Below, piece after piece: positions 23,201 to 64,000 of a stretch of 64,000 bases of DNA. Source of the stretch: Catajapyx aquilonaris (lineage: Eukaryota); the NCBI GenBank assembly GCA_000934665.2, contig KZ538061.1:62001-126000 (forward strand), given 5' to 3'. The stretch's first letter is position 1, and every line of letters begins with the position of its first letter. The notes below the pieces were generated by a model, which saw only the letters and a program-made list of their open reading frames with translations, searched no databases and had not been told where the DNA came from. The translations under genes were made by a program, and so were the position numbers.

Positions 23201-23935
23201 GGAAAAGTAGTTGTAGTATCTGATTAGCTGTGACTCTTATAGCTGTGCAGGTAATTTGCAGCCAAAAAAATTTGGTCATTTCTGTTATGTAGTCATAATT
23301 TTGAGATAATGGGAGATAAGGTAAATAAGAAAACAGCCTTGAAGACAGTGATATCAGCTATCATGATTCATGCAAGGTGTTAATGAGTTTCTCAAGTACA
23401 CTTGCAAATTCCCACAATGTGCAAATGGCAAGTGCCATTATGAGAGCGTGGCATGATGCATAGCATGAAATGCTTCTCACCTTGGGAAAATTCACCCGCA
23501 GCAGATATAATCTCATGTCTTAATTTCATGTTGCAGGGGATGTTTCCTGACCTCGTCCCTCATGGCAACACTGTCTTTGAGCTTGACCATTCCCATGTCA
23601 ATGATGGCAGATGTGATGTTCAAAAATGTCAAGTATCCCCTGCTGTTTTATGTTGGGAGTGCGCCCATGTTCTTGGCATTTTTTGCAGTCACACTACTGG
23701 CACATTATGAGAACTGGGACCCAATAGTAGAAGTGGCAAAAAGGGCTTGCTATTCCTGCTGTTATGGCAGGGGTGTTGTGAGGTGGGTTACTGTTCAGCC
23801 GTTACTTTTGATGGTAGTTATAAATATCATTAATAAATCAATAAAATGCCTTTTTTTGTTTTCAGGATACGAGACTGTGATCGTGAGCAAACTGAATCAC
23901 TGATTGGAATCAATCTGGCAGAACATGAAGCATAA
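17205..23935 (+). CDS. SLC35F5: Solute carrier family 35 member F5 (EamA/DMT transporter), 10 coding exons, ~457 aa
   Basis: Exons 17205-17291, 18768-18905, 18980-19051, 19115-19225, 19293-19445, 20943-21125, 21602-21755, 22706-22865, 23537-23782, 23866-23935. All introns are GT-AG and frame-consistent. Translation includes [121 protein letters not shown], typical of SLC35F5. The start could lie slightly upstream (open frame from 17121). AATAAA at ~24815. Confidence 0.93.
20247..20652. mobile_element. Degenerate Tc1/pogo(Tigger)-like MITE in an SLC35F5 intron
   Basis: Imperfect TIRs: ta|aagtgaatcattggttatccgaa at left versus reverse complement of the right end ta|gagtggagcatcgattatccgaa. TA flanks, with subterminal ggttatccgaa-like repeats. 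Confidence 0.6.
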
Positions 23936-26115: not shown

Positions 26116-26530
26116 ATGGGATCTTCCGTGATGGTAAGGACACATTGTGGCTTCCAGATACTGGAATTTTAATACTCGAGCATTGTTGAAGATATTGGTC
26201 GTCCTGGCGGTGGTGGCCGCAACAATGGCCTACCCTCTGGAGCAAACCCCGGCCGAGGATCGAAGCTTTCTTGGACCGTTTGAGATCAACCCTTTCTTCG
26301 GCTACAGGAAGTTCAAAGAAATCCGCTACGAGCCACTCACAGCTCCGTTCCCAGGGATCATGCCCGTGGCAGGCGGCCCCGGGGTGCCCCCACCACCCCC
26401 ACCTCCAGGTGGATTCGGACCAGGAATGATGCCCAACCCTGTCCACATCCCGCCCCAGATGGCCCAACCATACGGGTCACCTTTCGGCATGGGAGGACCA
26501 GGTGGAATTGGAGGAATGGGAGTCTTTTAG
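26116..26530 (+). CDS. Secreted Pro/Gly/Met-rich peptide precursor, 118 aa (cluster gene 1)
   Basis: CATAAAA at 26028. Exon1 26116-26133 MGSSVM|gtaagg, 58-nt phase-0 intron, exon2 26192-26530 ILVVLAVVAATMA-YPLEQTPAEDRSFLGPFEINPFFGYRKF...PPPPPPPGGFGPGMM...GGMGVF*. AATAAA ~26854. Confidence 0.85.
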
Positions 26531-28494
26531 GTATGCTTCGACCATTACGGCTTCAACCAGAGAATGGTACACAAGACTTTAATTGCTAGCTTAATTGTTG
26601 ACATTTATTATGTCAGAGCCATTTTCTGGTTAAAGCACAAATTATTAGGGCATTTATTCATAGAATTTAGTAATAACAGACACTTTATTGCTCCAGGTAG
26701 ATGCTGCCATTAGATGTGACTGATCAGTGTTACTGCCGTAGCTTTTTATACGTTTTTGAGTGCTATTTTTTATATCATGACACCACAGACATGTTCCTAT
26801 CTGTGTAAATATTCATTTCATAGTTTAACTTAATGTGTGCTAATTGTGTGTTGAATAAAAAACCCAAACAAAGCTGTGCGTTACTGAGTTGCCCTTGGTC
26901 GTTGTTTCAGCAGTTTATTAATCAGCCAGGAGCATCATCAGATGGGAAATATTTATGCCGTTATTTGGCATATGCCCTCTTCAAAACTTCAGCTACTGCA
27001 AAAAAAGAACAATATTCATGTCGTGTTTGCCCTTCACTTTTGATTTCGGCACCCTTTTTGCAGCATCATACTGTGTGTGTATATTCGGTTTATTATTATG
27101 CCCGGATATTTTCTGAACTCAGGATGCTCGTACTTTTTTACCTTGCCATTTTTTTTGCAACACACTGGTATGCTGCCTGATTGATTAACACATCGAAGGC
27201 TACCCGAAGGCTGCAGTTTAGCATGCCAAATGCGACTCCTCTTCAGGACATAAAGGATCTTTATCTCGTCACGGGCTGTCCTCGACTATTATGAACGTAC
27301 GCCCTACCCACATTTGCCGCCTATGATGAACTACAACGGTCTGGTGATGTCGAAACAGCAGTAATTTAGTGTTACCTTTCTATTCCGGCATCCAAATCTC
27401 CGACGGTTATGCTGCAAACCAAGGAGTGACAGTTCATTACGAGTCGTGCCATATTTTTCCAGCTTTTTCTTTTCCGTTCGTCATTCAAAGTCACGATTGC
27501 GCCATGAGGAAAAACCCTGGTTCCTAAATTGTGCCTGTTGGGTAGTACCAGCATCAATCTTTTTGGCACTTGCTACTCCAAGACTACTGGGGACTTATCA
27601 CGTGTAACAAACAGACCTGAAAATTGTATGTATTACGCAATTGTATTTTTTTCTTAGCGTGAAAGTACAAGAGTAGTCATCTGTGGGAGCTGGTGACCAT
27701 GACGAATAAAAAGCATCAACACTTTCTTGGCTCTCCTGGCTGGCTTGGACCGTCATTTTTGTCCACCATCATCCGCTTGGGGCACAAAGACCAAGCAAAC
27801 TATTGGGACGTGACCAGTAGAGATGACAACACCTCCTTCCCGCGGGAACTTTGTCTTGTTGGTCCCGTTACACTCAAAGCCCGTATTTCACTTTCCCCCC
27901 GCCGAGTCATTCTTTCTTGAGCCTTCTGGCGACCAACGGGCGGAAGGACTTAATGGATTTGTGCTATTTCTCAATAATATAATATATATGCTCGTAAATT
28001 AAATGGTGAAAGGTGATGCGTATGTATAGTGTCGCAACTAGATTGCTGGTTGTCTCTTCTTGTTAACGAATGCCAATGTCACTTTTGGTGTCGGTTTAGC
28101 AGCGAGTTGGTCCAGGGACGGTCTTTGTCATGGTTTTGCAAGTCATGCGGTGTAATACGGGAAACATCGAGGGGCCTGTTCTAAGTCGATGATGGCCTCT
28201 GACGCCTCAGGTGGTAATTGCAGGGTATGGGGTGGTGAAACTAAACGGAAATAAATAAGTGATGGTAATAACTCTATCAACATCGTAAGTAGAGGGATGG
28301 GCCAGACAGTACTTCCTTTTGAATGACGTCAGGGTGATGGTACTGCTTGACCAATGTAAAGACACTGGACCTGACTAACCTCAAACCTCAAGAAAGGCAG
28401 GCATGTGAACGCCAGTCTTTATAACCAGCGTCACCAATATCTTGGAGTGATTTATAAGTGTTACGACTGAAGCTTTTCCTAGAACTGAATTGTA

Positions 28495-28635
28495 CCATGG
28501 GGCTCAAATTGTTTTGGCCACTTTATCCTGGTCTTGAAGCAACCCTTACACACACACACTTGCTCAACGTGGGGCCTGTGCGAAGGGTTGCTTCAAGACC
28601 AGGATAAAGTGGCCAAAATAATTTGAGCCCCATAG
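28495..28635. mobile_element. 141-bp hairpin MITE with ~53-bp TIRs and TA flanks
   Basis: ta|ccatggggctcaaattgttttggccactttatcctggtcttgaagcaaccctt ... aagggttgcttcaagaccaggataaagtggccaaaataatttgagccccatag|ta; 2 mismatches between arms. Confidence 0.8.
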
Positions 28636-29313
28636 TAATTTGCCTGTGACAAGTGAGTGCTCAGAATTTGAGGCATATGACCCAAGTTACATGCTGGAAC
28701 TTACAGTTGACATTATTTGGCCTAAGTCAAAGTTTGTTGAGTGTTTTACCGCAATTCGGTAACATGCATATAAAAGCAATTTTACCAGGAATAAATGTTG
28801 ATCAAACAATTGACTCTCTCCAAAAGTCCAGATCCACTCGCCTTACATTCAACCCGGCACTTTTACCTCATAATATTTATTTTTCCGGTATGGTTGTTTG
28901 ACTGGTCACGTTCTCTCAGTAAACAAACACCTCCTATGCCATAAGGAAGCCTCCTCTTGACCAACCCACCATTGACGGTAAAGTGCTCTTCCCATGGTTC
29001 CTCCCACGATCAACAAAAAAAAATCAGCAAGACAAGCAACCTTGGCCTCTTTCTCCCCATGAAAGCAAGATCATACCCACTTCCTACATGTGTTTTTTTG
29101 CACATCCTCAAGAGCTCCCTCCCTCGAGACAGTGATCTGTCACTAACATAAGTGATTACTGGTCACCTAGACAGCGGGTGAAACCGCACTGCTTCCATCC
29201 GGGTATAAAAGGAGACGCCTTGAAGTCAGACCATTCTTTTGAAGGACTTGTACGCACTTTCTTCGTGCTCTTCATCAGCTCTATATCTTCGCAGTCTCTT
29301 GTTTTCTTCGGCG

Positions 29314-29971
29314 ATGTTGGTCAAATATTTGGTGAGTACAACGAAGTTGCGTCTGCGGTCCTGCAATTCCGGTCACTATATAAGCGCCTTTGAAGTACTG
29401 TACAATAGAGGGTGATGTCATGCTTGTTGTCCGAAACCACTGTCCTCGTTGTAGCAGCAGGCAAATTTTTTTTGGCCGCAATTTGGACAATGGTCACTGG
29501 CCTCTGTATGCCCTCATAAAGCGATTATTAATAATTTTTCTTGCGGTTAGCGAAGGATGCGACGTGTGCGATTGTGTTTTTTTTTGCGTTATCATGTCCG
29601 TGAGTTGCGTTTTCTTAAGTACGATTACTTCTAGAGTCATGGCCGTAAAGAGACTTTAATTAGGTGCCCCCTACTAGGACTATCCTATTGCGATGACTTT
29701 TTTTTTGAATGGTGCTTTCTAATGTTCTGATTACTTCCTGCAGATTGTGGTTGCTTTTATATTACTGGCGATCATGGGAAGTGTTCAAGAAGTGGAAGGA
29801 ACAAAGCTGAAGAAGAAGTTAAAAAAGTTGAAGGGAAAATTGAAGATCAAGGGTAAAAAGGGTGGTGGTGGAGGATGGAAGAAGGCAAAAGGTGGTGGTG
29901 GATATCACGGATGGCACGGAGGCGGAGGAGGAGGAGGGGGAAAGAAGAAGTACAAAAAGTGGAAGGGATGA
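29314..29971 (+). CDS. Secreted extremely Lys/Gly-rich cationic peptide precursor, 81 aa (cluster gene 2)
   Basis: TATAAAA 29204-29210. Exon1 29314-29331 MLVKYL|gtgagt, exon2 29744-29971 IVVAFILLAIMGSVQEVEG-TKLKKKLKKLKGKLKIKGKKGGGGGWKKAKGGGGYHGWHG8KKKYKKWKG*. Confidence 0.88.
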
Positions 29972-30530: not shown

Positions 30531-31626
30531 ATGAAGTTACTATCTCTGGTAAGTTAACATTTTCTTTAATTAGCTTGTAAGTTATATTCATATGCCGTAA
30601 TAGGCGTTAAGTCTCATTCTACTGTACTGATAGTGATTTACTTATTTGCAACAAAGCGATGTCAAATTGCGATTAGCGGTAACTGTCGTAAGATATAACC
30701 ATAATGTTGTGTGGTAATACCTGCCACATCTTTCTTACAAAATATGTCCCCCTGACCTATAGTAACAAAATAATGCAATAGGATTATCTTTAAAAAAACG
30801 TAATTAAGTAATCACGTGTGCCTGAATTTCCTTTTATGTCCAAATAAGCTAAAGTGTCTCAAAATCCAGCCTCTGCTGGGAGCACAATCAAGCTTTTATG
30901 CGACAAAATTTGAAAGGCACAGTTGAATGCCTAACCACACTTATTCACGCATTATTATTTCACCCATTTCTGTGTAAAGCGACATGCACGAACTACCCAC
31001 TTCCTGCAGAGCCGCTTACTGGTCTGTCACATTGCTCCAGATAGCTGCACCATGTGAAGACCTGAAACGCAGAACGATTACACTCACATTATGGTCTAAA
31101 TTGAGTCAAGCATTGTGCAATATATTCCTTGGTACAGTCCATCGCTCCATATAATTTATAGACCTCCAAATAAATGGGTGAAAAAATATCATTCTATCTT
31201 GCTGCATCTTCAAGTCCATATTACTCAGAAATTAATAGAGCGATTTGTTCCCACCAGATTCTGGTCCTCCTGGGCGTCATCTCTGCGGTGGTGGCCAGCT
31301 CCTACTCCCTGGAAGATGTGGTAGCCCTGGAGTCGGACTTGCCAACCCTTCTTCGTGTCAGGAGAGGCGGGAAGGGAGGCGGAGGAGGAGGAGGAGGAGG
31401 ATATGGTGGGGGTGGCGGGGGCGGGGGCGGGGGTGGTAAGAAGGGAGGCGGAGGAGGAGGAGGNGGAGGCGGAAAGAAGGGAGGCGGCGGCGGCGGCGGT
31501 GGCAAGAAGGGAGGCGGAGGAGGAGGCGGGAAGAAGGGAGGTGGCGGAGGAGGTGGTGGCAAGAAGGGAGGTGGAGGCGGCGGCGGTGGCAAGAAGGGAG
31601 GCGGCGGTGGCGGGTGGAGGGGGTAA
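30531..31626 (+). CDS. Secreted poly-Gly/Lys peptide precursor with RVRR site, ~128 aa (cluster gene 3)
   Basis: TATAAAA 30437. Exon1 30531-30548 MKLLSL|gtaagt, exon2 31258-31626 ILVLLGVISAVVAS-SYSLEDVVALESDLPTLLRVRR-GGKG9YG...(KKG6-9)n-WRG*. AATAAA ~31683. Confidence 0.9.
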
Positions 31627-34929: not shown

Positions 34930-36146
34930 ATGAAGACTCTGTCTCTGGTGAGTTTTTCCATCGGCCATCATGACCCCTCTTGACCTGGTATTTTCTACTT
35001 ATTTATTTAGGGCGTTGTTAGTGCAATTTTACTACGAATAATAATCATTCTTAACATTAAACCGCAACACTCTGCTGCTGCAATTGCAACATTAATCCAA
35101 ATAATCAGTGTACTTTCCATAAAAAACTAAGCTTGCAGCGTTTGGAATATTCATTTGTAGCCCGTACGATAAATCCAGTGTAAAGTGTGCTGTAGTTGTA
35201 AAAAGTTTCGTAAAATCGTTGTCGTACCGAATATGATAGTACAAAAGTGCTGCTCTAAGTACCTAGAGATTACTTTAAAGGGACACTCAAAAAACAAGTT
35301 TGTCTCTAAAAATCGGGCAAGAAATCATGAATCCGAAGATGCCATCCGTTTTTCGCTACGCGGAACGGTAATCCCAGGGCGAGGGGTCAAAGAGGGGAAA
35401 TTCAAATAGTGCGCTAGAAGCTGGCCGTCGCCAGCGACGCCCTCGGGACCTTCGGAACTGGAGGGCTGCTCCCGCCTCCACGCGCGCTTAGGCCCATCCC
35501 AGGGCGGTGCAGCCCTCCAGTTCCCCTGTTCCCCGCGTGGCGGCGCCGCTCATTAACAGACGGCACACTTTGACACATCGCCCTGGGATTACCGTTCTGC
35601 GTAGCGAAAAACGAATTGCACCGTCGGATTCAGAATTTTTTGCCCAATTTTTAAAGCCAAACTTGTTTTTTGAGTAGAGTGTCCCTTTAACGTATCTAGA
35701 ATATCATGATTACTGACTGATTTCGAAGTGCCTTTCGCCAATAATGTCAACCCTCTATTGCAGTTGCTGTTGTTCCTGGGTATCTTATCCGTAGTGGTGG
35801 CTAGCTCGTATTCCCAGGATGATGTGGTAGCCCTGGAATCGGACCTCCCGACCCTCCTGAGAGTCAGGAGAGGCGGCAAGAAGGGAGGCGGAGGAGGCGG
35901 AGGATATGGTGGTGGCAGAGGAGGCGGCGGAGGGAAGAAGGGAGGCGGCGGCGGAGGAGGATGGAGGAAAGGGGGAGGTGGAGGAGGGGGGAAGNNNNNN
36001 NNNNNNNNNNNNNNNNNNNNNNNNNNNNNNNNNNNNNNNNNNNNNNNNNNNNNNNNNNNNGGGGAGGTGGAGGCGGCAAGAAAAAGGGAGGGGGTGGCAG
36101 AGGTGGTGGTGGGAAGAAGGGAGGCGGTGGTGGCTGGAGGGGTTAG
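34930..36146 (+). CDS. Secreted poly-Gly/Lys peptide precursor with RVRR site, paralog of gene 3; assembly gap inside the repeat (cluster gene 4)
   Basis: TATAAAA 34826. Exon1 34930-34947 MKTLSL|gtgagt, exon2 35764-36146 LLLFLGILSVVVAS-SYSQDDVVALESDLPTLLRVRR-GGKKG7YGGGR...[N gap 35995-36060]...KKGGGGGWRG*. AATAAA 36195. Confidence 0.87.
35279..35686. mobile_element. Kolobok-type non-autonomous DNA transposon (MITE), 408 bp, in the intron of gene 4
   Basis: TTAA|AGGGACACTC... and ...GAGTGTCCCT|TTAA. Imperfect TIRs of ~105-110 bp extend to cggtaatcccagggcga / tcgccctgggattaccg, around a GC-rich core. A TTAA target with purine (AG) termini fits Kolobok rather than piggyBac (CCY termini). Confidence 0.8.
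35995..36060. other. Assembly gap (Ns) within the Gly/Lys repeat of gene 4
   Basis: 66 N bases. The reading frame differs across the gap, so the true gap length is unknown. Confidence 0.95.
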
Positions 36147-36353: not shown

Positions 36354-37151
36354 TTAGACGTAGTAGTAGGCCGGGTAGGCCGAGTAGGCGGCGTAGCCGT
36401 GATGGTATGATGGATAGTACGTCGAATAATAGGTCGGCACGGTGTAGGCGACGTGGGCCACGTGATGGGATGTCTCCTGGTTCTGCAGGGTCTCAACGGG
36501 CTTGGCGGCGTCTCCTTCGGCGGACTCAGTGGCCATCACGGCGGTGAGGGCCAGAGCCAGGACAAACTGAATGCACAGATAGCATGAGAATTAGGCCCTA
36601 CAAATCAATATTAAATAACATATATGCATGGATTGTTATGTTTTTTCCACATATTTTGGATTTGAAAAATGTGGTGTTGCCCATTTCTAACTTGAACTTT
36701 AATACTTAAAAGGAGGACGGCCCGACAATAGCCTCTCGTCATAATACCCATTTCTAACTGGGAAAGGTTGCCATTCAGTTTTTGCTCTTAATTCATTGGC
36801 GTCATATTGATTATACAGGGCCTAGAGCACTTTTCAAATTATAATGTATGTGGTCCTAAGGTTTGACATGTTTTAGCACGTTGGAAATTTTGAATCTAAG
36901 TTATTGTAATATGGTGTAAAGTAATATTGCAATTTTACCCTTAATACAGTACAATCGGCTGTACAAGTTATGTCACAATATCCGAGCTAAGAAGATAATT
37001 ATGTATCTCAGTCTTCTTTCATATGGGATTGCTTAAAAACTTTACCAAGTATTTCCTAATCCCTTTAGATACAAAACACCAGTTTTAACAAACAAATTAA
37101 ACATTAACCACACAACCGCCCCCAAAACCTACTCACCAGAAACTTGTACAT
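36354..37151 (-). CDS. Secreted Tyr/Ala/His-rich peptide precursor, 75 aa, cuticle-protein-like low complexity (cluster gene 5)
   Basis: TATAAAA 37225-37231(-). Exon1 37137-37151 MYKFL|gtgagt, exon2 36354-36566 FVLALALTAVMA-TESAEGDAAKPVETLQNQET-SHHVAHVAYTVPTYYSTYYPSYHHGYAAYSAYPAYYYV*. AATAAA(-) 36225-36230. Confidence 0.88.
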
Positions 37152-40857: not shown

Positions 40858-41260
40858 TTAGTAGTAGAGACGATGATAGTCACGCTTCCCAAAGGCGTTT
40901 ACACGTGCAAATCCAAAGCGGCTTCCGTGTTTGCGGCTGGGTTGTCGCCGGTGTGACGATTGTCGTGTGATACGAGCAGGGTTACACCCACTGGGGACAG
41001 GCGACGACTCGACATCGTCCACGGCAGCCAGAAGAAGCACCAGACTCAAAATGCTCCAAATGATCTAATTAAATGCAACAAAGTTAGCCTTCTCATTATG
41101 CTTATTCCAATTTTTATAAGGTCCAAATGACATCATTTTGTAACCATTCTTACTGAAATTTGCTTGGCACTGAAAACACTGATGATGCCATTTGCACCTT
41201 AAAAAACCAGAGAGTCTGCAGTTCCAAAACTTTTTATAAACTTACCTTATAGAAGTCCAT
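40858..41260 (-). CDS. Secreted Arg-rich precursor with dibasic sites and GKR amidation signal, 73 aa (cluster gene 7)
   Basis: TATAAATA 41329-41336(-). Exon1 41246-41260 MDFYK|gtaag, exon2 40858-41064 IIWSILSLVLLLAAVDDVES-SPVPSGCNPARITRQSSHRRQPSRKHGSRFGFARVNAFGKRDYHRLYY*. AATAAA(-) ~40773. Confidence 0.8.
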
Positions 41261-41996: not shown

Positions 41997-44493
41997 TTAA
42001 TAGTCTTCCCAGTACGATCCCTTCTTCCCCCATCCCCAGGCCCCACCATGTACCACTGGTTTTTTGTGTCCTCCTCCTCCTCCGCTGCCTCCCTTCCATC
42101 CGCCTCCACTGCTGCCTCCCTTCCATCCTCCGCCGCTGCTTCCGCCCCCGCCGCCGCTTCCCTTCCATCCTCCTCCGCTGCTTCCGCCTCCGCCGCCTCC
42201 TCCGCTTCCGCTCCAGCCCTTCCAGATGAAGCTGGGCTTATGGAACGTTGGTTTCTTCCATCCGCTGTGCTTCCATGGCTTCTTTTTCCATCCACCACCG
42301 CTGCTCCATCCTCCTCCGCCTCCGCTTCCACTTCCGCTGCTACTCCATCCGCCTCCGCCTCCACTTCCGCTTCCGCTTCCGCTGCTGCTCCATCCTCCGC
42401 CTCCGCTGCCACCCTTCTTCTTCTTCTTCCAGCCCTTGCTCTTCTTCTTCTTCCAGCCGTCGCCTCCCTTCTTCTTTGGAGGCTTGGGCTTCTTCCATCC
42501 CTTCTTCCAACCGCCCTTCTTCCAGTCCTTCCATCCGCTTCCACTTCCGCTGCCGCTGCCGCTCCCGCTCCCACTACTGCTCCATCCGCCTCCTCCTCCA
42601 CTTCCGCTGTTGCTCCACCCCTTGCTGCTGAAGTCTTTCCAGCCCTTCTTCATGAAGTCCTTCCAGCCGCCTCCATGCATGATATCTTTCCATTCGTCCT
42701 TCCAGCCGCCTCCCCCGCTGCTGCTCCATCCGCCTCCGCCACTGCCCTTCTTCTTCTTCTTCTTTTTCCATCCGCCCCCGCCTCCACTTCCGCTACTGCT
42801 CCAGCCCCCTCCACCTCCACCTCCGCTGCCTCCCTTCCATCCGCCTCCACTGCTGCCTCCACCTCCGCCGCTCCATCCCCCACCGCCACCGCCACCGCCA
42901 CCACTCCACATCAGGGCGGCTCCCTGTGTCAAATCAAATGTGTCAATCCTTACCATACAGTTTATTTTATGAGTATTTTTGTATTAGTGTTGACAATATT
43001 ATTATGTGATTTACTGGTTTTTCGAACTGCTTTATGTATCGACATGCGGACATTTTTGCTTTGAGGGGAGGCAGGTCCGTGAAGGCCAGCGTTTATCACT
43101 TGCCCACTTCCACCAGGCTCAATTTGATTATTTTGTCTTCACCCAAGGCAAAAATGGACAGATTCTATGTGCGTAATCAATCTTGCAATCATTTCATATC
43201 GGCCCTTCTCTGACTGGGATGGGATACTATTGAGGCTCATATATACGAATTTGAGACTTTCAGATCAATATTGCAGGCAAACAGTTCGAAGTCGTTCGAA
43301 TGACTGCTTCTTTAAACAGTATCGAAAGAGAGTGGCAGCTAAAAATTTCGAATCTTGTGTGCAAAAAGTCGCTCTACATGTCTCAAGTTCGCAGATTTGT
43401 GAATAAGCCTTTACTTGTGTGCTTATCGAAAGTCCGAGAACACTTTTCGATGCATATTGTAGGACCCAGCTCGTTACGATAATTTATAAAGTTTATACGC
43501 ACTAAATGCAGTGTTTATTAGTCATATGTGTAATGTAGCTTTTGTATGTGGTCAATAATTCTTTCATTTGCTTCAAGTAGCTCTTATTCTAAGATAATTT
43601 TTTGTTGCCAGGCATAGTTACATGATAAAAGTTTATAACATGTCATCCTATACCGTATATCACACTACGGGGCTAGCAACGCTATTTGAAATGTCCTGCA
43701 GGATAATCCCAATATCAAATATGAAAAATATTCATGACTTAATTGCTACCGCACGCAGCAATTAAACAATTATGCAAATTTTTGATTCATAATAGGCAGC
43801 CCTGCCTAAAGCCAACGCGGGTAATTAGCTACTGACCACCATGTTTCTTGTAACGTAAGATAGAGTTCAGTAAAATGTGTGTGGGCCTGGTGTCAATTCC
43901 TTCATCCTTATTTATAGGCCAGTGCAACCCTCAATTGGCACGAGGGTTGCTGACACATAAGGATGAACCTACCTCCAAGTCGCTCTTCTCCACCTGCAGA
44001 GTGGTGGATTCCTCTGTGCTATTGCCATCTATAGGACTGGTAGTGGGTGGTACTACAGGCGACGTGTCATTCTCCGCCGCAGATGTCCAGGCGGCCAGAA
44101 AGGTCAGCAAGAGAAGAACCTGGAAGTTAACGAAGAGGTCAAGGTTGGTCGCCGCCATACGTCAAAGACTCAGTTGTGACCTTTCGCGGGAGAATTAGGT
44201 TACAGAAGACCTAGTGACCAGGCCAAAGAATGTGGCAGAACAGGTTATTCCTCCACACGTTGCGTCTGTTCCAACTAGTTTTCCCCCCTGACACTGTTCG
44301 GGGTCAAGTTGCGTCATCAATTGCGGAAGATATTCACTTAGTGGGTCACCGGATCCTAGACTATGAGATGTTCTAGGATAGTATCGCGCTAGTACAACAC
44401 TATTGGTTCGGAAGAGGGAGGGTTCAAATCACTGCTTTTTTTATCGCACTATATGACCACTTGTCGCGTTCAACTCACCGGAATCGTCTTCAT
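41997..44493 (-). CDS. Secreted Gly/Ser/Lys/Trp-rich block-copolymer protein, 362 aa, 3 exons (cluster gene 8)
   Basis: TATAAAA 44594-44600(-). Exon1 44479-44493 MKTIP|gtgagt, exon2 43973-44119 VLLLLTFLAAWTSA-AENDTSPVVPPTTSPIDGNSTEESTTLQVEKSDLE|gtaggt, exon3 41997-42923 GAALMWSG10WSG...WKKKKKKKG...GKKGSYWEDY*. Both introns are phase 0. Confidence 0.9.
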
Positions 44494-45563
44494 CCTGCTA
44501 CTCCTTCCAGGTGCTCGCCTAGTAACCCTGGCCCTGACCGATGTGTGCAATGTCGTGTTCCCGTCTGTCAGAAGTGTGTCGGTCCCTTGCCCGTTTTATA
44601 TGAATGGGGGGAGGGCCCCAGCCAGGTCGGGTCCGTCACCTCTCGACCGCCAGCCAACAGCCGTGGGCTACCTACGAAGAGCTAGCTAACCAGAAGACGA
44701 ACCAGAAAACGGCGCGCGCCGAGTTCTACATCTTGTAGCCAGCCTCTAAAGATATAGGGGATGGTAGATGGTGGGGGTGGGAGGGATTTGGAAGAAGAGG
44801 AAAAAAAATATATAGAGAGGGGGGGGGGGGGAAGGGGTGCAAACTGAGAACGCACCTGAGAAGAGCTATTTCACCGTTGTTCATATACGGATATGAGGGA
44901 GCAACGACCTGATATTTTTTGGGAGGTCTTTCTAGACTCGTGGGAGCCTCCTTACCACGTGGTGACTAATGTGGCGGTATTAATAAAAGGGGTGGCTATT
45001 TTTGAAAGGGGCTGGATTGACCCCATCAATAATTCACATTGGCAATGTGCAATATGTGGCCTAAAAGGGATGAGTGAAACGTGATATTGTTCTTTTTAAT
45101 TAGCTAAAGTGTCATATGCTAATTATAATAGCTATAATGCTGCCGACGTGAATGAAAAAACCTGATTGATATTTTAATTAGCTAATATGTCTGTAAATTG
45201 CATATTGACATAATGCTGAGGAAGTAGGCTACTTACGTCATGAAAAAACCTGATCAATAAACAACATCATTACGCTAATTTTTTAAAAAAATATTGTGGC
45301 ACAATAATTCGGATTGTACATTATCAGAACTTGTTTTCAGTTTGAATCTGCCTGACTATTATTTTTCACCACATCCATTGTTGAATCCATTGAGATGCTG
45401 ATTGAGGTAGCCGGAGAGACCAGTAACTGTACTTCTTACCTGGCAGTTATTATGACAGAGCATGATCGTTAACGTCATCATGTGACATCTTTGTAAGGGT
45501 TCATAAATGAATAAAATACAACAAACGAGTCTTTCCATGGTTTATTGGGAAATGAACCCCTGT

Positions 45564-46658
45564 TTATTTACCCCAGTGATAATTCCATTTCGGATAACCG
45601 CTGCAGCAGGCACGGTAACCTCTATTCCAACGAGGATAGTAATTATTGTAGTAGGGGTAGTTTCCGTAATATTTAGGATAGTAGTTCTGGTAATAGCCGT
45701 AATATTGTGGATAGTTGACGTAGCCGTAGCCGTAGTGGTAGCGAGATTCTTCGGTGTCTTGGTCTTCACTTACGGAGTAAGCTTCTTGGGCATGATCTTC
45801 ATTTGCGGGTAGACCTTCATTGTTACTAGGGTTCACTTCGTTGGGGTTTTCCTCAGCCAAAATGCAGCCAGCCAGCAGAAAAGCTGCTAATATAACCTGA
45901 AACATTTTGACCTAATTAGCTCATGATTTTAACATATTTTGCAGCTAAACTGGAAAATCGACATATGACAGTACGTAACGGAAGTAAATAAATAAAACTG
46001 TCTGGTTTTAGGTAGGCCTAGACCCTATGCAAAAAAGAGCTTACTCATTAGCATCCCAAATTTTATTGGGCCATTATTAACCAGTTAATGAAATTGCTCC
46101 CTCGTAATATGGCAAACTTCTCGTGACAATTTTATAATCATTGCAGGCTATTAATTATCATTACATTTTTGTGACTCTAAATGCAGTACGATATGATCTT
46201 TTCCATCAATTATGACATCCCCATTGTAATTTAGAAGCAATAAATGCATATTGACCCTGCAATGCGGCATAAACTCTTATTACTGTCAAGTAACCCCACT
46301 TTCGATCCCTTTTCCTTTTCACTTCGGACATATCACCCTTAGGTGACCACACATGATAACGAAATATGCAATAGTTAAACGTGCATGTGAAACGGAAAGT
46401 CGCTAGAGAAAATGACTTGACGTTTTTCTTGCAATTGAGGTTGATGGATGCCTCTCCTTATACAGTACGAAGATCTGTTATAATTTCTAACAGACAGAAT
46501 GTCTACAATGAAGGCAGGTCTCATTAGCGTAAAGCGGTACGCGTTAAATGATTGCAAAAACATTACACCTCATAATATTATAGTGAAGGGAGGAAGTATG
46601 TTTTGAGAGGAAAAACGTTTTAATACTGAAGTAGGTTACTTACCAGGATCTTGGTCAT
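45564..46658 (-). CDS. Secreted acidic-pro / Tyr-Asn-Gly-rich protein, 115 aa (cluster gene 9)
   Basis: TATTTAAA-like element ~46742-46751(-). Exon1 46644-46658 MTKIL|gtaagt, exon2 45564-45896 VILAAFLLAGCILA-EENPNEV...SEDQDTEES-RYHYGYGYVNYPQYYGYYQNYYPKYYGNYPYYNNYYPRWNRGYRACCSGYPKWNYHWGK*. Confidence 0.88.
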
Positions 46659-47303
46659 GGTGTCAAGGGTGAGTAAAGGAACACTTCTTGCGATACGAGC
46701 AGTATGAGGTATGAATGCCTTTTTTTGAACTCTACGGGCGTTATTTAAATAGGTTTACGATGGCCTTGACTTTGAAAGCGTCAGACCAATTTACTCGATT
46801 TTCTGACCTTCCAGACGTGAATGCGCAAATAGAAATTCCCAGAGCATTATGATTTATATCAGTAGTTTTCTCATGCATGAAGACGCAAAGGATGTGTCTA
46901 TTTTCGTCATGACTTGTAGATGTTATCATTGGCAATTTATCGTCTCATAAAACTAGCAAAGTTCAGCGTTCGGAGTAAATGACAGCCGTTTTTACAGCAG
47001 CTTTAATCCTATTTCACATTCAATGTCGTACTGTATGCTGACCCGAACAGGATGTTCCTCTTTTTTCTTGTACAAGCGCGTTGTGATCTTGGTGAAAGGT
47101 CGTCCAAAACCTGTTTTTAGGTGAGGAGGTGCACAAATGGAGTTTCCCACTGACCCTAATTTTGTGCAATTACACAGCATGAAAAATGGCAATATTCCAA
47201 TTTATATTTTTTCTGCCAAAAGCAAATTCTGAGAAATTTTACATATGCATCCATGCGTGACCCACATTTTTTTTTAACTGAGGTAAATGTTCACAAATCA
47301 CAT

Positions 47304-47786
47304 TCACCACACTCGTCCATACAAAGGATGATAGCCAAATCCGTACCAATCAGCACCTCCAGATCCAGTTCCAAGCCCGGATCTATCACCAAACCATCCC
47401 AACCCTGACCCATAAAATAATGCTTTCCGATAGTTCGGAATCGGATTTCGAGCAGGTTTTTCAGCCCCGATGATGATATGAATAGGACCATTCCACAAAC
47501 TACGGTCCTTTCTGTCCTGGTGGTCCCCGGATGCCCACACTAGAAGCGTGAGAAACTATAAAAAAGCGAGGGGAAAAAAAGTAGACCAATTAATTTCGTG
47601 ATCGTAGACTAGGCTTGGAAAGGGGAACAAGTGGCTGGACCAACCAGTTTTTTTCGTGTTGAATATTCAATGCGTAGGAAGCTATGCGTGGGTAATAAAT
47701 AAAGCCAAAGGATGATAACTGCTATGGTTGATAACCATCATTTAAGAGAAAAAATTGGTACTCACAAGCAGTAATTTAGGTAGCAT
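47304..47786 (-). CDS. Secreted Gly/aromatic peptide precursor, 90 aa (cluster gene 10)
   Basis: TATAAAA 47849-47855(-). Exon1 47766-47786 MLPKLLL|gtgagt, acceptor ttttttatag, exon2 47304-47555 FLTLLVWASG-DHQDRKDR-SLWNGPIHIIIGAEKPARNPIPNYRKALFYGSGLGWFGDRSGLGTGSGGADWYGFGYHPLYGRVW*. Confidence 0.82.
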
Positions 47787-48166: not shown

Positions 48167-49610
48167 TTAATGCCAGTCGTAGTCGTCGTCCCACCATTCG
48201 CCCTTCTCCCCCCAGCCCTTGGCCCCTCCGTGCTTATGGTGTTTTTCGCCCCCGCCGCTCCATCCTCCGCCACCGGACCACCCCTTCTTCTTCTTGTGCC
48301 AGCCCTTGTGCCAGCCGCCCCCGCCCCCGCTGCCGCTACCACTGCTGCTGTGCCCGTAACCCGCAGTCTGCAAACCAACAAGCAATAGAGTCAGTATATG
48401 GTCACACATACATTGTTGCGGTTCAGCCAATTCCTACTGCGAAAGAAAGGTGATGGATCACCACCGGCATGTGAATTAGTTTGAATAATACGTCACGTAT
48501 GTACTCTCCTGTCGTCAGTGTCATCGTCGTCAACGTCATTGGATTACAAAAGGTGATCAGAAGATGGAAGCAGGAAGAATGGACACTGGTTGGGAGCGTG
48601 GGTTTGAATGGAATAAAAATGCGAAGGCGGTGGTCGTGTAAGGGTCAAGGTCTTTTTCCACTTGGTACGCTGTAACATGTGTTACTGCTTGACCAACATG
48701 CGTAGGGCAGATAGGGAAAGAATTAAAACCAATAGAAAACTCTTTTGATCCAATTAAAGTCCGATTGGGATGAATAATTTTTGTCATTAGCATATTGATT
48801 ACATTATTTCCTTGCACTAAACTTTGGTCAAATTGCTGTGCATCATGCAGAGCCTCACTATTTCTGCTATGAGCCAATCAGGCTTGGTTGAATAAATGTA
48901 ATTGCTGGCATTCATATGCCTACTGCCCCTCGAGGGAGAAATATGCATTTTCAATATTATGCAGCAAAGTTTTACCAGATCTTGGCAAATGGTGGTCAAT
49001 CAGTAACAGAACTATCGAATACGTACCACTCCTTCAACTCAAATGATTATATCGACTACATGTTACAACGTCTAGAGTCTACTAAGGTCATAGTGTCTGC
49101 CAGGTCGCTACTGGAGGGCCAAAGCTGAGAGAGAATGAGTTGCAATACATACGTCCAAGTCTCCTTTGACTTTTTCAGGGAATGGGGAAGCGGCGACCAG
49201 TGCCAGCAAGGTCACCAGCAACAGCACCTGCAAAGAGAATCCAACCGGAACACTTGACGTGTGATCGTAAAAATCAGTCCCCAGGACTCGTGCGTCACCT
49301 CCTCATCCCTCGTTTTGGGGAATGCCGTGCTACAGGTTACAAAGAGGGCTAGCTCGGCTTTTTGAGAGAAGATCCTAACAGTCCTCGGTTCCTCTGGGTG
49401 TTTCTCTATGGAACCAGGTGAACGCCCTTCTCGCAACATCCCTAACCAAACTGATGGCTACCACGCCCTAAAAGGCTCCGTTCTGACACACACGAGAAGT
49501 AGTGTTCTCACAACAACTAGCGTTCCAGAACAGGTTGTGTGTTTGGATCATCCTCAGGGGCCGACATGAAAAAGAGTCTAAAGTTCAAATCTTACCAAAA
49601 GGGTCTTCAT
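48167..49610 (-). CDS. Secreted Gly/Lys/Trp/His peptide precursor, 96 aa, 3 exons, short paralog of gene 8 (cluster gene 11)
   Basis: TATAAAA 49720-49726(-). Exon1 49596-49610 MKTLL|gtaaga, exon2 49153-49227 VLLLVTLLALVAA-SPFPEKVKGDLD|gtatgt, exon3 48167-48367 TAGYGHSSSGSGSGGGGGWHKGWHKKKKGWSGGGGWSGGGEKHHKHGGAKGWGEKGEWWDDDYDWH*. Confidence 0.88.
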
Positions 49611-52844: not shown

Positions 52845-53526
52845 TTACCAGACTTGCTGCCTGTACCAAACGTGCGGTCTGTAGTTTGAGTCTCCATAAA
52901 CCGAGGTGGGTCTGTAGTAGCTGCCGTAAGTGTACTGGTACCGCTGAGTAGGACGAGCTGCCAGAAAAGTGGGCCACATCCAGCCGGCCGCCTTCAGGTC
53001 ATCCTCAGGAGCATCCTTGACCTCAGGTGCCTCTGGCCCTTGCGGCAACGCACGAGTCAAAACGATGCCGATCACGGCCAGCACCAATATCTGCGGCACA
53101 AATGAGAATAATTATTATCACAAATGGTGCTGTTAAGTCGTTTTATTATAGCTTTAATTTTATTGCATTGCACTGTACTTTTGTACGCTGGGTTGTGGTA
53201 AAATGATGAGTTATCTCTGACTCACATGGACCACCGGATGTAACAGTGCACATTATAAGTTACATTAAAAATCATTTCAGTTACTAAATTCCAGCATGGA
53301 TATCATTACAAGAGTTATCAGATGTATAAGCAACATTAAATATCTACATCTATCAATAAGATAATGTCATTTTCTACATTTCAAACTGTTTTGTTACAAG
53401 CAATGGTCAATTGAGATTTTTCTGCACAAAATCTCAATTTATCTCATAACCGTGGTCCTGATTATTAATTGTTATTGTACTATTTGCACTTTTCCATATT
53501 GTGAAGCCACTTACCACAGATTTCAT
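52845..53526 (-). CDS. Secreted Tyr/Arg/Trp-rich peptide precursor, 85 aa (cluster gene 12)
   Basis: TATAAAA 53660-53666(-). Exon1 53515-53526 MKSV|gtaagt, exon2 52845-53090 ILVLAVIGIVLTRA-LPQGPEAPEVKDAPEDDLKAAG-WMWPTFLAARPTQRYQYTYGSYYRPTSVYGDSNYRPHVWYRQQVW*. AATAAA(-) ~52763. Confidence 0.88.
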
Positions 53527-56821: not shown

Positions 56822-57529
56822 TCACGTCTGACGCCACTTTTTGCCTCCACCGCCGTGACCGTGACCTCCGCCTCCCTTCTTGCCACCCTTTTTGTTGCCC
56901 TTGCCCTTGTTCTTCTTCTTGTTCTTCTTCCTCTTCTGCTTCTGGGCCTTCTTGCCGTAAACTCCCTTGTAGGTGTGTCCCTTCACGCCCCAGCCATATG
57001 GACCTTTGCTCTTGTGGCTGTACACCGGGTAGTGACCTCCTCCGCCACCGTGACCTCCGCCGCCGCCGCCGCCTCCGTACCTACAAATGCAGTCAGTAGC
57101 AAATTGCATTTGTTGCAAAAAAATCCATGCTCACTTACTTAACAACAATAGGACGCCACCACATCCAGTCGGCGGTGTCCAAATCTGTCTCCAACTCTTC
57201 CTTTTCGCCATCTCGCTGACCCCATGCTATCGTCGCCAGGACGATCAGCAAGGAGCCAAGGAGCTGTGTGAACAAATAATAAAAAAACAGCAAGTTAACA
57301 TCTGACCTAACTGGCAATTGACCAACTGTACCGTTACAGTTAGCACTCACTGCCAAATTTTTTTCGCAAAATTTAATTTTAAAAATAAATTGCGAGATAG
57401 GCAACAATTTAACACCAAACTACAAAAAATTAAGTCCACGCACTAATTTTTGCACGATGGTTTCCATAAATACACGCGCGATATCACTGTTCCTGCTTGT
57501 GGTCACCAACTTACCACCAGTCTCATCAT
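56822..57529 (-). CDS. Secreted Gly/Lys/His/Tyr cationic precursor, 132 aa, 3 exons (cluster gene 13)
   Basis: TATATATAA 57668-57676(-). Exon1 57515-57529 MMRLV|gtaagt, exon2 57139-57263 LLGSLLIVLATIAWG-QRDGEKEELETDLDTAD-WMWWRPIVV(K) ending phase 2, exon3 56822-57080 YG8HG5HYPVYSHKSKGPYGWGVKG...KQKRKKNKKKNKGKGNKKGGKKGGGGHGHGGGGKKWRQT*. Confidence 0.88.
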
Positions 57530-62571: not shown

Positions 62572-62808
62572 CGACTTTATAATTGATATATTTAAGGAGG
62601 TTGGCCCAGCATTGCCTTCCAACCTCCAAGGATAGGGAAGGAAGGAAGCGGCTGTGGCCTATTATACGGAAGCAACCCCGGAATTATCCTAGAAAGACCG
62701 TGGAAAACCACAGAAAACCACGGTCAAGGTTGCCGGCCCCGGGATTCGAACCCAGGACCTCCCAATTAGCAGTCGGACGCCTTAGCCACTATGCCAACCT
62801 GCTTCGGT
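62572..62808 (-). mobile_element. tRNA-derived SINE with 12-bp target-site duplication
   Basis: Minus-strand head accgaagcaggtTGGCATAGTGGctaag...cctgGGTTCGAATCCcgg contains A and B boxes. It is flanked by the exact direct repeat cacattttacac at 62560-62571 and 62809-62820. Confidence 0.85.
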
Positions 62809-64000
62809 CACATTTTACACTGAGGGAAACATTGCTTTGTTTTTTTCGGTTTGGTTTTGAGAAGCAACACGAACCAAATGAACACTGGATTTTCAGAATG
62901 ATCAGAGGACCTTGTGGTCAAAATTGAGCCTTTCATCAGGTCAGTTATCTATAGAGAAATTCTAGTCTCCCATGGATAGTTATTTGAAAAGAATCGATCC
63001 CAATAGGAATTATGCAATTTCAAAATTCAAATGGGCTCACGTTGCTATTTAAAATAATTAGTTTATGTTGCAGTATTATGTACCATTATGCTATAGTTAG
63101 ATCGTTCTGCATTTTCAGTATTTAGTTGTGTCGCATCAAGTAATCTCTTATTGTAGATGGACCTGTAAGCAGGAGAAGTATGTCCGGGAACAAAAATAAG
63201 CAAATCTGTACGCCAACAATATTTTATTGGCAAAATCATGGCATGATGAACAGCAAGTGTAAACGTACAAGAAACGACAGCAATGAAATAAACAATGAAA
63301 GATTGCTTCTGCAAGCGTTACCACCACCATCCGCCATAGAATCCGGGGAACAGGCCGAATCCAAATCTGAAATCAGTGAAATGGGAGTAAGTCCCCGTCC
63401 TTCACCCTATGAGCCCCAGTCATTTTGATTATAAGTTATTTACCCCCATGGTCCCCAGAAGGTTTGCGACGTCTCCATTTCCTCCTTGTCCTGTTCCTTT
63501 GCAGGTGCTGCCATCGCTAAGCACACCACCAGAGCCACCAAAAGAAGAGGCTGCCCAACAATGCTATTTGGTTAACAACCTCAAGATTTATTTCTCAATT
63601 TTTAACTTACCAGGAAAGCCTTCATGTTGTAATATATTATAGTAAGTTCAAACTGACAGTGCCGAAGACTAGGACCAGGGTCAGACCACAGGGCCAGTTT
63701 TATATGGGTGGTCAAGGGTACATTTCACCCGAAACCAAAAACAACATTAAGTAGCTCTATAGTGAAAACAAGTTTTATCAGAAATGGCCCTCTTCTAATC
63801 CAAATATAGATTGGGAGAAATTGTTGTTTGTAAAGTTCCTGTCTAGAAGCAGGTGTAATTTAGGCATAATATTTTAATTGCGACCCTTACCGGCGATACG
63901 CTCAAGGAATTTGTCTAATTGCATTTTTGGCCAGATTCCCGTAAATAAAACATACCGGTTGGAGAGCGGATATTGTTAAAGTATATAACAGGAACGGTTT

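Follow-up and report, generated by a model that had tools for sequence, protein, structure and literature searches.

A Three-Exon Gene for a Predicted Disordered Gly/Ser/Lys/Trp Protein Within a Tandem Family of Low-Complexity Genes of Catajapyx aquilonaris

Introduction

Barnacle cement, tick cement, insect cuticle and some arthropod antimicrobial peptides (AMPs) are the main described systems with which the gene considered here can be compared. This gene is found on the minus strand of a stretch of 64,000 nucleotides (nt) from Catajapyx aquilonaris (assembly GCA_000934665.2, contig KZ538061.1, positions 62,001 to 126,000), called the window below, and all positions are given in the coordinates of this window. 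An earlier note, made from the letters of the sequence, had described its product as a secreted protein of 362 amino acids (aa) built of Gly/Ser and poly-Lys blocks with regularly spaced Trp, and had proposed that it could act in adhesion or coacervation, or be a source of antimicrobial fragments.

In the barnacle cement proteins named GSrCPs, as presented in PMC5099703, Gly/Ser low-complexity domains alternate with Lys/Arg-rich domains, and the Lys residues are proposed to be involved in surface binding and in cross-linking. A tick cement protein that is both disordered and glycine-rich (glycine-rich protein, GRP) coacervates via cation-pi and pi-pi contacts; the preprint on this protein (10.1101/2023.03.27.534361) also indicates that its acidic N-terminus delays the onset and discusses the even spacing of its aromatic residues. 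Among the low-complexity cuticular proteins of insects, the CPG family is defined by GXGX or GGXG repeats together with presence in the cuticle, whereas the CPLCW family is marked by an invariant Trp within a conserved domain and, according to PMC12426002, is reported from mosquitoes only. Furthermore, acanthoscurrins, ctenidins and serrulin are described in PMC6784228 as cationic, glycine-rich peptides of 3.5-10 kDa that are C-terminally amidated.

Structure of the Gene and Patterning of Its Product

The gene is a genuine three-exon gene of the minus strand: the TATA box, the ATG, the splice sites, the stop codon and the poly(A) signal all fit this strand (Table 1). Joining of the exons by a script according to their coordinates leads to a product of 362 aa, as had been claimed. 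This gene model is supported by these signals, by the reading frame and, as detailed in the next section, by the family context, by a short paralogue (G9) and by the splice of a neighbouring gene (G7). In exon 3, the frame remains unbroken over 308 codons, from a family motif at the start of the exon to the tail shared with G9, and all of the 22 tandem-repeat rows found inside this exon have a period divisible by 3. The third codon position is the most variable (entropy of 1.89, versus 1.61 and 1.20 for the other two), and Gly is drawn from all four of its codons (67, 41, 10 and 12 times).

The N-terminus shows the anatomy of a signal peptide, i.e., a Lys, 11 hydrophobic residues and then the small residues T-S-A-A, so that the secretion put forward in the earlier note appears probable from the sequence. 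Exon 2 encodes the remaining part of this signal peptide followed by an acidic, Thr/Ser/Pro-rich segment, which carries two sequons, NDT at precursor residue 22 and NST at residue 38, and ends with SDLE. The composition of exon 3 is dominated by four amino acids (130 Gly, 55 Ser, 51 Lys and 32 Trp), while aliphatic residues are very rare (three Ala, two Ile, two Val, one Leu and three Met). The whole protein includes neither Arg nor Cys, only one Gln and two Tyr; the description of a protein devoid of Cys and almost devoid of aliphatic residues was therefore correct. The motifs that had been quoted, namely a run of seven Lys, the WKKGGWKKGWKKPKPPKKK block, the WKKKKSKGWKKKKK block, the WKDEW...SSKGW insert and the SYWEDY end, are all present where they had been placed, as are the two sequons.

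The patterning of exon 3 was compared with that of 5000 shuffles in which its composition was kept. The gaps between Trp residues have a coefficient of variation of 0.47, versus a shuffle mean of 0.90, and none of the 5000 shuffles was equally low. In the same way, no shuffle reached the number of W-K adjacencies (19, versus a mean of 5.3) or the number of Lys located beside another Lys (36, versus 15.4), and only three of them contained a Lys run as long as the longest one observed (seven). The immediate neighbours of Trp are also strongly biased, Gly preceding it in 25 of the 32 cases (binomial p 4e-5) and Lys or Ser following it in 29 of them (p 5e-11). When exon 3 is divided into bins of 28 residues, Trp is evenly distributed (2-4 per bin), whereas Lys is blocky (0-15 per bin) and the other bins are dominated by Gly and Ser; at least four different types of blocks can be distinguished. 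The layout of exon 3, with evenly spaced Trp stickers, Gly/Ser spacers and separate Lys blocks, is thus non-random. This agrees with the regular Trp, often placed before Lys, and with the sticker-and-spacer organisation that the earlier note had described.

After removal of the signal peptide, the protein would have about 341 aa, a mass of 32.9 kDa, an isoelectric point of about 10.3 and a net charge of about +36. Its chain is predicted to be disordered, since a single-sequence AlphaFold2 model gave no fold (mean predicted local distance difference test score, pLDDT, of 43.1; predicted template modelling score of 0.17). The only helices of this model (exon-3 residues 79-82 and 88-93) are located within the WKD-type insert, which had been regarded as possibly amphipathic; this insert does stand apart as the only part with a predicted helix, but with a pLDDT of just about 55. 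Concerning maturation, neither a furin-type site nor a dibasic Arg site was found in the protein, which has no Arg, and the C-terminus (...SYWEDY), which does not end with Gly, carries no amidation signal. The absence of Arg and this acidic end mean that there is no sign of convertase processing or of amidation, whereas such signs are seen in the neighbours G1, G2 and G3. The division into a pro-segment and a mature region that had been suggested is not supported, as no processing site separates the two, unlike in G2 and G3, which carry RVRR. C-mannosylation was also considered; with just two W-x-x-W motifs in the protein, it remains speculation.

Contigs of the likely source runs lie over 42090-42735, within exon 3, at a depth of 17.8 versus about 37 in the flanks, and of 13.8 versus about 28; heterozygous repeat-length alleles or noise of the assembly graph could be the cause. 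Contig joints linking 42329 or 42568 to about 57057, as well as a joint that goes back 553, were rejected as graph artefacts, their sides being stretches of 20-40 nt in repeats.

A Tandem Family of Small Genes

The gene belongs to a tandem family in which about 13 small genes (at least 12 besides this one) code for secreted proteins of low complexity. A scan of the window for a TATA box followed by an ATG, a few codons and GTRAGT led to 15 candidates, none of them before 29 kb, which were followed to their acceptors. This resulted in 13 gene models (the present gene and 12 others) located between 26 and 64 kb, in which all introns are of the GT..AG type. All 13 share a common plan: a first exon of 4-7 codons, a phase-0 intron inside the signal peptide and a TATA-like box 71-200 nt ahead of the ATG. 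The position and phase of intron 1 thus recur in G9 and in the other genes of the cluster. This architecture is confirmed by a transcript-like record for G7, the only member with such support: a public contig of 417 nt from run X5 matches 45576-45894 and 46642-46739 and skips 747 nt, with joint ends that read CT..AC on the plus strand and therefore GT..AG on the minus strand.

Several members also share a motif of the pro-region that consists of an acidic stretch, DL[EDKP] and then A..(W)MW. It is split by intron 2 in the present gene (SDLE and GAALMW) and reads TDLDTADWMWW in G11, DDLKAAGWMW in G10, GDLD and TAG in G9, and ESDLPTLL in G2 and G3. Being short, this motif can be considered as moderate evidence for a common family.

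The gene closest to the one under study is G9, located about 4 kb upstream on the same strand; neither this short paralogue nor the family itself figured in the earlier note. Both genes have the same three exons with the same intron phases; their products start with MKT and have VLLL in the signal, and exon 2 closes with DL[ED] in each. The third exon of G9 (66 aa) contains Ser/Gly runs, together with G-W-H-K and K4 motifs. Its tail shares 11 identical residues out of 16 with that of the larger protein (BLASTP E 0.003), and a DNA stretch of 60 nt is 82% identical to the larger exon 3. The two promoters share CATATAAAA and one 12-mer, and little beyond.

The other members are diverse (Table 1). 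G3 is built like G2: an acidic pro-piece and RVRR are followed by a part with about 80% Gly and KK pairs, and WRG forms the C-terminus. By their sequences, G1, G2 and G3 resemble precursors of glycine-rich cationic peptides and may be candidate AMP genes, whereas the Tyr-rich members G4, G7 and G10 are acidic or neutral. An assembly gap of 66 bases (35995-36060) lies within the Gly-rich coding exon of G3, and single N bases are found at 1176 and at 31464, the latter within G2; the repeat lengths of G2 and G3 are therefore uncertain. In G12 (63444-63460, minus strand), an in-frame TAA overlaps the GTAAAT donor of exon 2, so that an unspliced read-through would give a peptide of 41 aa ending with Gly and splicing a product of 56 aa ending with WWW; two products from this single gene are possible.

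With the exception of the TATA box, the 13 promoters have no 8-mer in common above control levels. Six motifs were tried on these promoters and on 300 controls. Matches to kappa-B-like motifs amount to six, two of them in the promoter of the present gene, versus a control mean of 2.0, and nine of the 300 controls reached six, which makes this a weak signal. FTZ-F1-like motifs are found twice (control mean of 0.14; five of the 300 controls), only upstream of G7 and G10, and GATA motifs are depleted, both signals being weak as well. The location of the FTZ-F1-like motifs upstream of two Tyr-rich members is a weak hint of moult-linked control.

Table 1. Positions of the features of the three-exon gene and of its cluster in the window
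Feature	Position	Strand	Remarks
TATA box TATAAAA	44594-44600	-	107 nt upstream of ATG; read directly and found by script scan
Exon 1, coding part	44479-44493	-	5 codons from ATG 44493 (start of signal peptide); donor GTGAGT
Intron 1	44120-44478	-	359 nt, phase 0, within signal peptide; GT..AG
Exon 2	43973-44119	-	49 aa, stop-free; acceptor ...TTCCAG, donor GTAGGT
Intron 2	42924-43972	-	1049 nt, phase 0; donor GTAGGT, acceptor ...ACACAG
Exon 3, coding part	42000-42923	-	308 aa; Gly/Ser spacers, 32 Trp, Lys blocks
W-K7-G block	42744-42770	-	In exon 3
WKD-type insert	42615-42704	-	Exon-3 residues 74-103; sole part with weak predicted helix
Central Lys-rich block	42414-42533	-	Exon-3 residues 131-170; one 28-residue bin holds 15 Lys
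Lys/Pro/His/Phe block	42213-42290	-	Exon-3 residues 212-237
C-terminal tail	42000-42068	-	23 aa; common to paralogue G9
Stop codon TAA	41997-41999	-	
Poly(A) signal AATAAA	41882-41887	-	About 110 nt past stop
G13	26116-26527	+	Pro/Gly/Met-rich secreted protein; exon 1 26116-26133, exon 2 26192-26527
G1	29314-29968	+	81 aa; Lys/Leu-rich start, then Gly/Lys/Trp; C-terminal Gly (KWKG), charge about +19
G2	30531-31623	+	128 aa; acidic pro-piece and RVRR, followed by part of about 80% Gly with KK pairs; end WRG
G3	34930-36143	+	Paralogue of G2, 75% identity over 173 nt; broken by N run 35995-36060
G4	36357-37151	-	75 aa, Tyr/His/Ala-rich
G5	40861-41260	-	73 aa, Arg/Ser-rich
G7	45567-46658	-	115 aa, Tyr-rich; exon 1-exon 2 junction seen in public contig
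G8	47307-47786	-	90 aa; small aromatic/Gly peptide
G9	48170-49610	-	Short three-exon paralogue, 96 aa; exons 49610-49596, 49227-49153, 48367-48170; TATA near 49725
G10	52848-53526	-	85 aa; pro-region motif DDLKAAGWMW, Tyr-rich end
G11	56825-57529	-	Three exons, 132 aa; motif TDLDTADWMWW, then Gly/His/Lys-rich part
G12	63321-63625	-	Small aromatic/Gly peptide; 56 aa with exon 3; 41 aa if in-frame TAA at exon 2 donor is read

Search for Relatives and Genomic Surroundings

Searches for relatives of the protein all gave negative results. For exon 3, no Pfam family was obtained at E up to 1, and the best score in the ESM Atlas (0.75, an arthropod Gly-rich DUF4766 cluster) is below the level of a lead. 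For the protein, a word-indexed homologue search, in which 8000 candidates were scored, and phmmer against 1.84 billion representatives both gave no match at E up to 0.001, and a sequence search of the PDB gave none at E up to 1; it should be kept in mind that the composition correction of HMMER may mask genuine low-complexity relatives. Neighbouring genes used as proxies did not lead further: exon 2 of G7 had weak Atlas scores (0.81 and 0.77), and exon 2 of G10 had no candidate sharing words with it. A literature search, conducted mostly outside subscription journals, found no description of a Gly/Ser/Lys/Trp protein like this one; string searches with five short motifs led to one of them only, in a paper on plant peptides that is unrelated. 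The gene can thus be called lineage-restricted in the sense that no relative is detectable by the searches made.

The host was placed by means of a complete SLC35F5-like gene (17205-23932, plus strand, nine tblastn pieces), the only gene with a conserved domain in the window. Its product shares 62-64% identity with proteins of polyneopteran insects and 54-59% with those of molluscs, annelids, nemerteans and brachiopods. In a quick tree, it joins springtails and insects (Shimodaira-Hasegawa-like approximate likelihood ratio test support of 94), apart from malacostracans and lophotrochozoans. On the basis of this gene, the host is treated here as a pancrustacean near the base of hexapods, and as nothing more precise. 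The cluster begins about 2 kb after this gene and extends to the end of the window. Pfam was run on 98 of the 107 listed open reading frames (ORFs) of the window, nine being dropped as they overlap the present gene, G9 exon 3 or the low-complexity stretches of G11; it gave one EamA match (E 1.3e-5) and two matches at chance level only.

Other features of the window include a tRNA-Ser (GCT) at 62731-62802 (minus strand), found by ARAGORN and by Rfam (36.5 bits) just downstream of G12. Inverted repeats at 28493-28637 and 35285-35675 resemble small foldback elements or miniature inverted-repeat transposable elements. One has arms of 55 nt that are 96% complementary and 35 nt apart; the other, within intron 1 of G3, has arms of 108 nt that are 88% complementary and 175 nt apart.

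Possible Function and Evolution of the Protein

The favoured reading, whose probability approaches an even chance without reaching it, is that the gene encodes an intact, disordered, polycationic extracellular protein of sticker-and-spacer type, a component of a matrix, glue or coating, grown by in-frame repeat expansion. The gene would have originated from a short member of the family resembling the 96-aa G9, in which in-frame expansion of the repeats of the last exon would have led to 362 aa. The product could act intact and extracellularly, by multivalency. The Gly/Ser runs would be flexible spacers, whereas the 32 evenly distributed Trp residues, mostly found as G-W-K or G-W-S, would be stickers engaged in cation-pi or pi-pi contacts or in stacking on sugars or surfaces; the cation-pi contacts would pair Trp with the adjacent Lys. 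The Lys blocks could bind polyanionic partners or surfaces, or provide cross-linking sites. Stickers, spacers and Lys blocks could together lead to a matrix, glue or coating in condensed form.

The acidic and probably glycosylated N-terminal stretch, together with the acidic tip, may hold the protein soluble until its deployment; such a role is envisaged for the N-terminal part because the tick cement GRP work proposes it there. Judging from the high net charge, condensation would require salt, a higher pH or an anionic partner. The anatomy of the gene, its place in the family, the composition and non-random patterning of the product and its predicted disorder are established by the sequence analysis, whereas we infer that the protein is secreted and left unprocessed, that it condenses or adheres, and in which tissue it would act. 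The underwater adhesion that had been envisaged finds no support; the host looks like a hexapod-like arthropod.

A bolder version of this proposal, rather improbable as it stands, is that this Trp/Lys polycation forms an extracellular condensate independent of 3,4-dihydroxyphenylalanine (DOPA), such as a glue, an egg or spermatophore coat or a layer on the cuticle surface. The cluster would then be a rapidly evolving toolkit, in which a conserved signal/pro-region cassette is associated with interchangeable low-complexity bodies (Gly/Lys, Gly/His, Tyr-rich or Trp/Lys) that co-assemble into a single material or double as an antimicrobial coating.

Several observations weigh against an intact extracellular matrix protein, or against parts of the model on which it is built. 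A net charge of about +36 borne by Lys and not by Arg would disfavour homotypic coacervation, and no strongly acidic partner is found within the cluster, whose most acidic members only reach about -3 to -4. By their sequences, G1, G2, G3 and G11 are closer to cationic, glycine-rich peptides of immunity than to matrix proteins. No relative was found outside the window by the word-indexed search and phmmer. Furthermore, BLASTP gave no alignment between the second exons of the gene and of G9, so the case for their paralogy is made by the tail, the architecture and short motifs. With such a composition, an open frame arises easily: ORFs of at least 245 aa are found in four of the six frames over exon 3, and the length of the exon 3 ORF taken by itself is therefore weak evidence for a gene. 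As the short-read contigs do not span 42736-42912 and reach only about half depth over 42090-42735, the precise repeat length given for exon 3 depends on the assembly. Run X5, which provided the spliced G7 contig, matches the present gene only by low-complexity stretches of 19-25 nt, and these were counted neither way.

The main rival is an immune role, according to which the protein would be a large member of a cluster of glycine-rich, cationic, AMP-like genes, either coating or agglutinating microbes as an intact protein or being cleaved into W/K fragments. W/K-rich cationic chemistry suits membrane attack, and the pro-region motif that the protein shares with G10 and G11, and partly with G2 and G3, suggests a single family. 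Among the neighbours, G2 and G3 combine an anionic pro-piece and RVRR with a Gly content of about 80% and a Gly at the C-terminus, while G1, with its charge of +19 and its Lys/Leu N-terminus, also ends with Gly; they match the description of acanthoscurrins, ctenidins and serrulin given in PMC6784228. The protein itself departs from this picture: it is a 33-kDa protein with 42% Gly in exon 3, without Arg, furin-type site or C-terminal Gly, and has a mucin-like N-terminal stretch with sequons. Likewise, the Tyr-rich, neutral or acidic products of G4, G7 and G10 are unlike AMPs. Some excess of kappa-B-like motifs is seen in the 13 promoters, two being in that of this gene, but the matches are G/C-rich strings and were obtained with six motifs tried. 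The cleavage at KK runs into W/K fragments, as had been imagined, is pure conjecture that nothing found here supports. An immune function is thus considered as unlikely, yet as a serious competitor. The view that the gene is a neutral or decaying by-product, in which slippage enlarged the last exon of a family paralogue that has little or no expression and no function of its own, is improbable. Exon 3 is indeed made of slippage-prone triplet repeats, 54 of its 55 Ser codons are AGY, which a single transition separates from GGY, and neither the word-indexed search nor phmmer found an orthologue. However, the frame is intact over the 924 nt that link the start of exon 3 to the tail, both of which are conserved, and the splice sites, the TATA box and the poly(A) signal are intact too. 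The repeats are degenerate (64-91% matches in most rows) and the Gly codons mixed, unlike in a fresh, pure microsatellite, and the even Trp spacing, the W-K pairing and the four or more types of blocks exceed what duplication of a single repeat unit would give.

Two other explanations receive much less credit. The absence of any minus-strand gene, the apparent one being a by-product of GGN/AAG-rich repeats or of a plus-strand gene, or else an assembly artefact, is very improbable. Plus-strand ORFs of 380 and 322 aa do cover the same DNA, and contigs of the likely source runs break within the repeat. Nevertheless, these contigs match 42090-42735 with no differing letter; the signal peptide, the splice sites, the TATA box, the poly(A) signal and the architecture of the paralogue fit the minus strand only; and in plus-strand frames it is the first codon position that would be the most variable. 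An intracellular GW-repeat protein, such as a GW182-like Argonaute hook, or another glycine-rich protein binding nucleic acids is hardly credible. Although G-W amid Gly/Ser resembles GW/WG hooks and binding of nucleic acids would be expected from poly-Lys, the N-terminus is built like a classic signal peptide, as it is throughout the cluster, and the absence of any Pfam match at E up to 1 includes the Ago hook and GW182 models.

If the gene is expressed, its product would be a natural secreted protein in which sticker-and-spacer design is seen with unusual clarity, and its chemistry could inform the design of adhesives or coacervates. The cluster would illustrate how a conserved signal/pro-region cassette can be coupled to fast-evolving low-complexity bodies, and how in-frame expansion of repeats can turn a gene for 96 aa into one for 362 aa. 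As it stands, it is a well-formed orphan gene of a common general class, that of arthropod secreted glycine-rich proteins.

Comparison with Known Systems

Membership of the protein in any of the systems compared cannot be demonstrated from its sequence, which has no shared domain and no detectable homology with them; the likenesses concern layout, proposed physics or gene architecture. Some candidates were set aside. Glycine-rich antifreeze proteins of the springtail type are made of GXX triplets, versus Gly runs with Lys blocks here. A mollusc shell-matrix or byssus protein was rejected as the flanking SLC35F5 gene groups with hexapods and not with molluscs. Prion-like domains of the FUS/hnRNPA1 type also have evenly spaced aromatic stickers (about 12% aromatic residues) in Gly/Ser-rich spacers, but they are intracellular, rely on Tyr and Phe and are nearly uncharged, whereas the present protein would be secreted, relies on Trp and is a polycation.

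The glycine-rich AMPs of arthropods are, like this protein, cationic, very rich in Gly and secreted, and the products of G1, G2 and G3 also share their small size and the C-terminal Gly that signals amidation. Compared with these peptides, the present protein is three to nine times larger, contains less Gly (42% in exon 3) and has an acidic end (...WEDY). Its size of 32.9 kDa, its Gly content and its lack of an amidation signal all place it outside this group.

By taxon and by gene architecture, the closest systems are the low-complexity cuticular proteins of insects. An early intron in the part coding for the signal peptide is common in insect cuticle and chorion genes, a point for which the literature search found no supporting paper. 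The CPG and CPLC proteins, including CPLCW, are also arthropod proteins that are secreted, Gly-rich, repetitive and encoded by clustered genes, according to PMC12426002. The protein has Gly runs and GSGS repeats, but the definition of CPG is compositional, so this is no proof of kinship. No Chitin_bind_4 (CPR) or other cuticle family domain was found in exon 3 (Pfam, E up to 1) or in the 98 ORFs of the window.

By layout, the closest proteins are the barnacle GSrCPs and cp19k-like proteins, which are also pancrustacean and secreted, with alternating Gly/Ser and basic domains and a high isoelectric point. They differ in that Ala, Thr and Val are used as well and that Trp is not abundant, and the host here groups with hexapods and not with barnacles. 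As for homology of the cp19k type, phmmer gave no match among the 1.84 billion representatives, with no direct pairwise comparison with barnacle proteins.

By its proposed physics, the protein is closest to the tick cement protein GRP77, with its aromatic stickers and small polar spacers. A signal peptide is found in both, as is a disordered chain rich in Gly, in which an acidic N-terminal part precedes a cationic/aromatic part. GRP77 has 77 aa, 26% Gly, Arg associated with Phe and Tyr, and little net charge. The present protein has 341 aa, 42% Gly in exon 3, Lys associated with Trp, a net charge of about +36 and long Lys runs, and no homology with GRP77 was found. Its distinctive trait is this Trp/Lys chemistry, with about 10% Trp and without Cys, Arg or DOPA-prone Tyr, unlike that of the mussel, sandcastle-worm, barnacle and tick materials.

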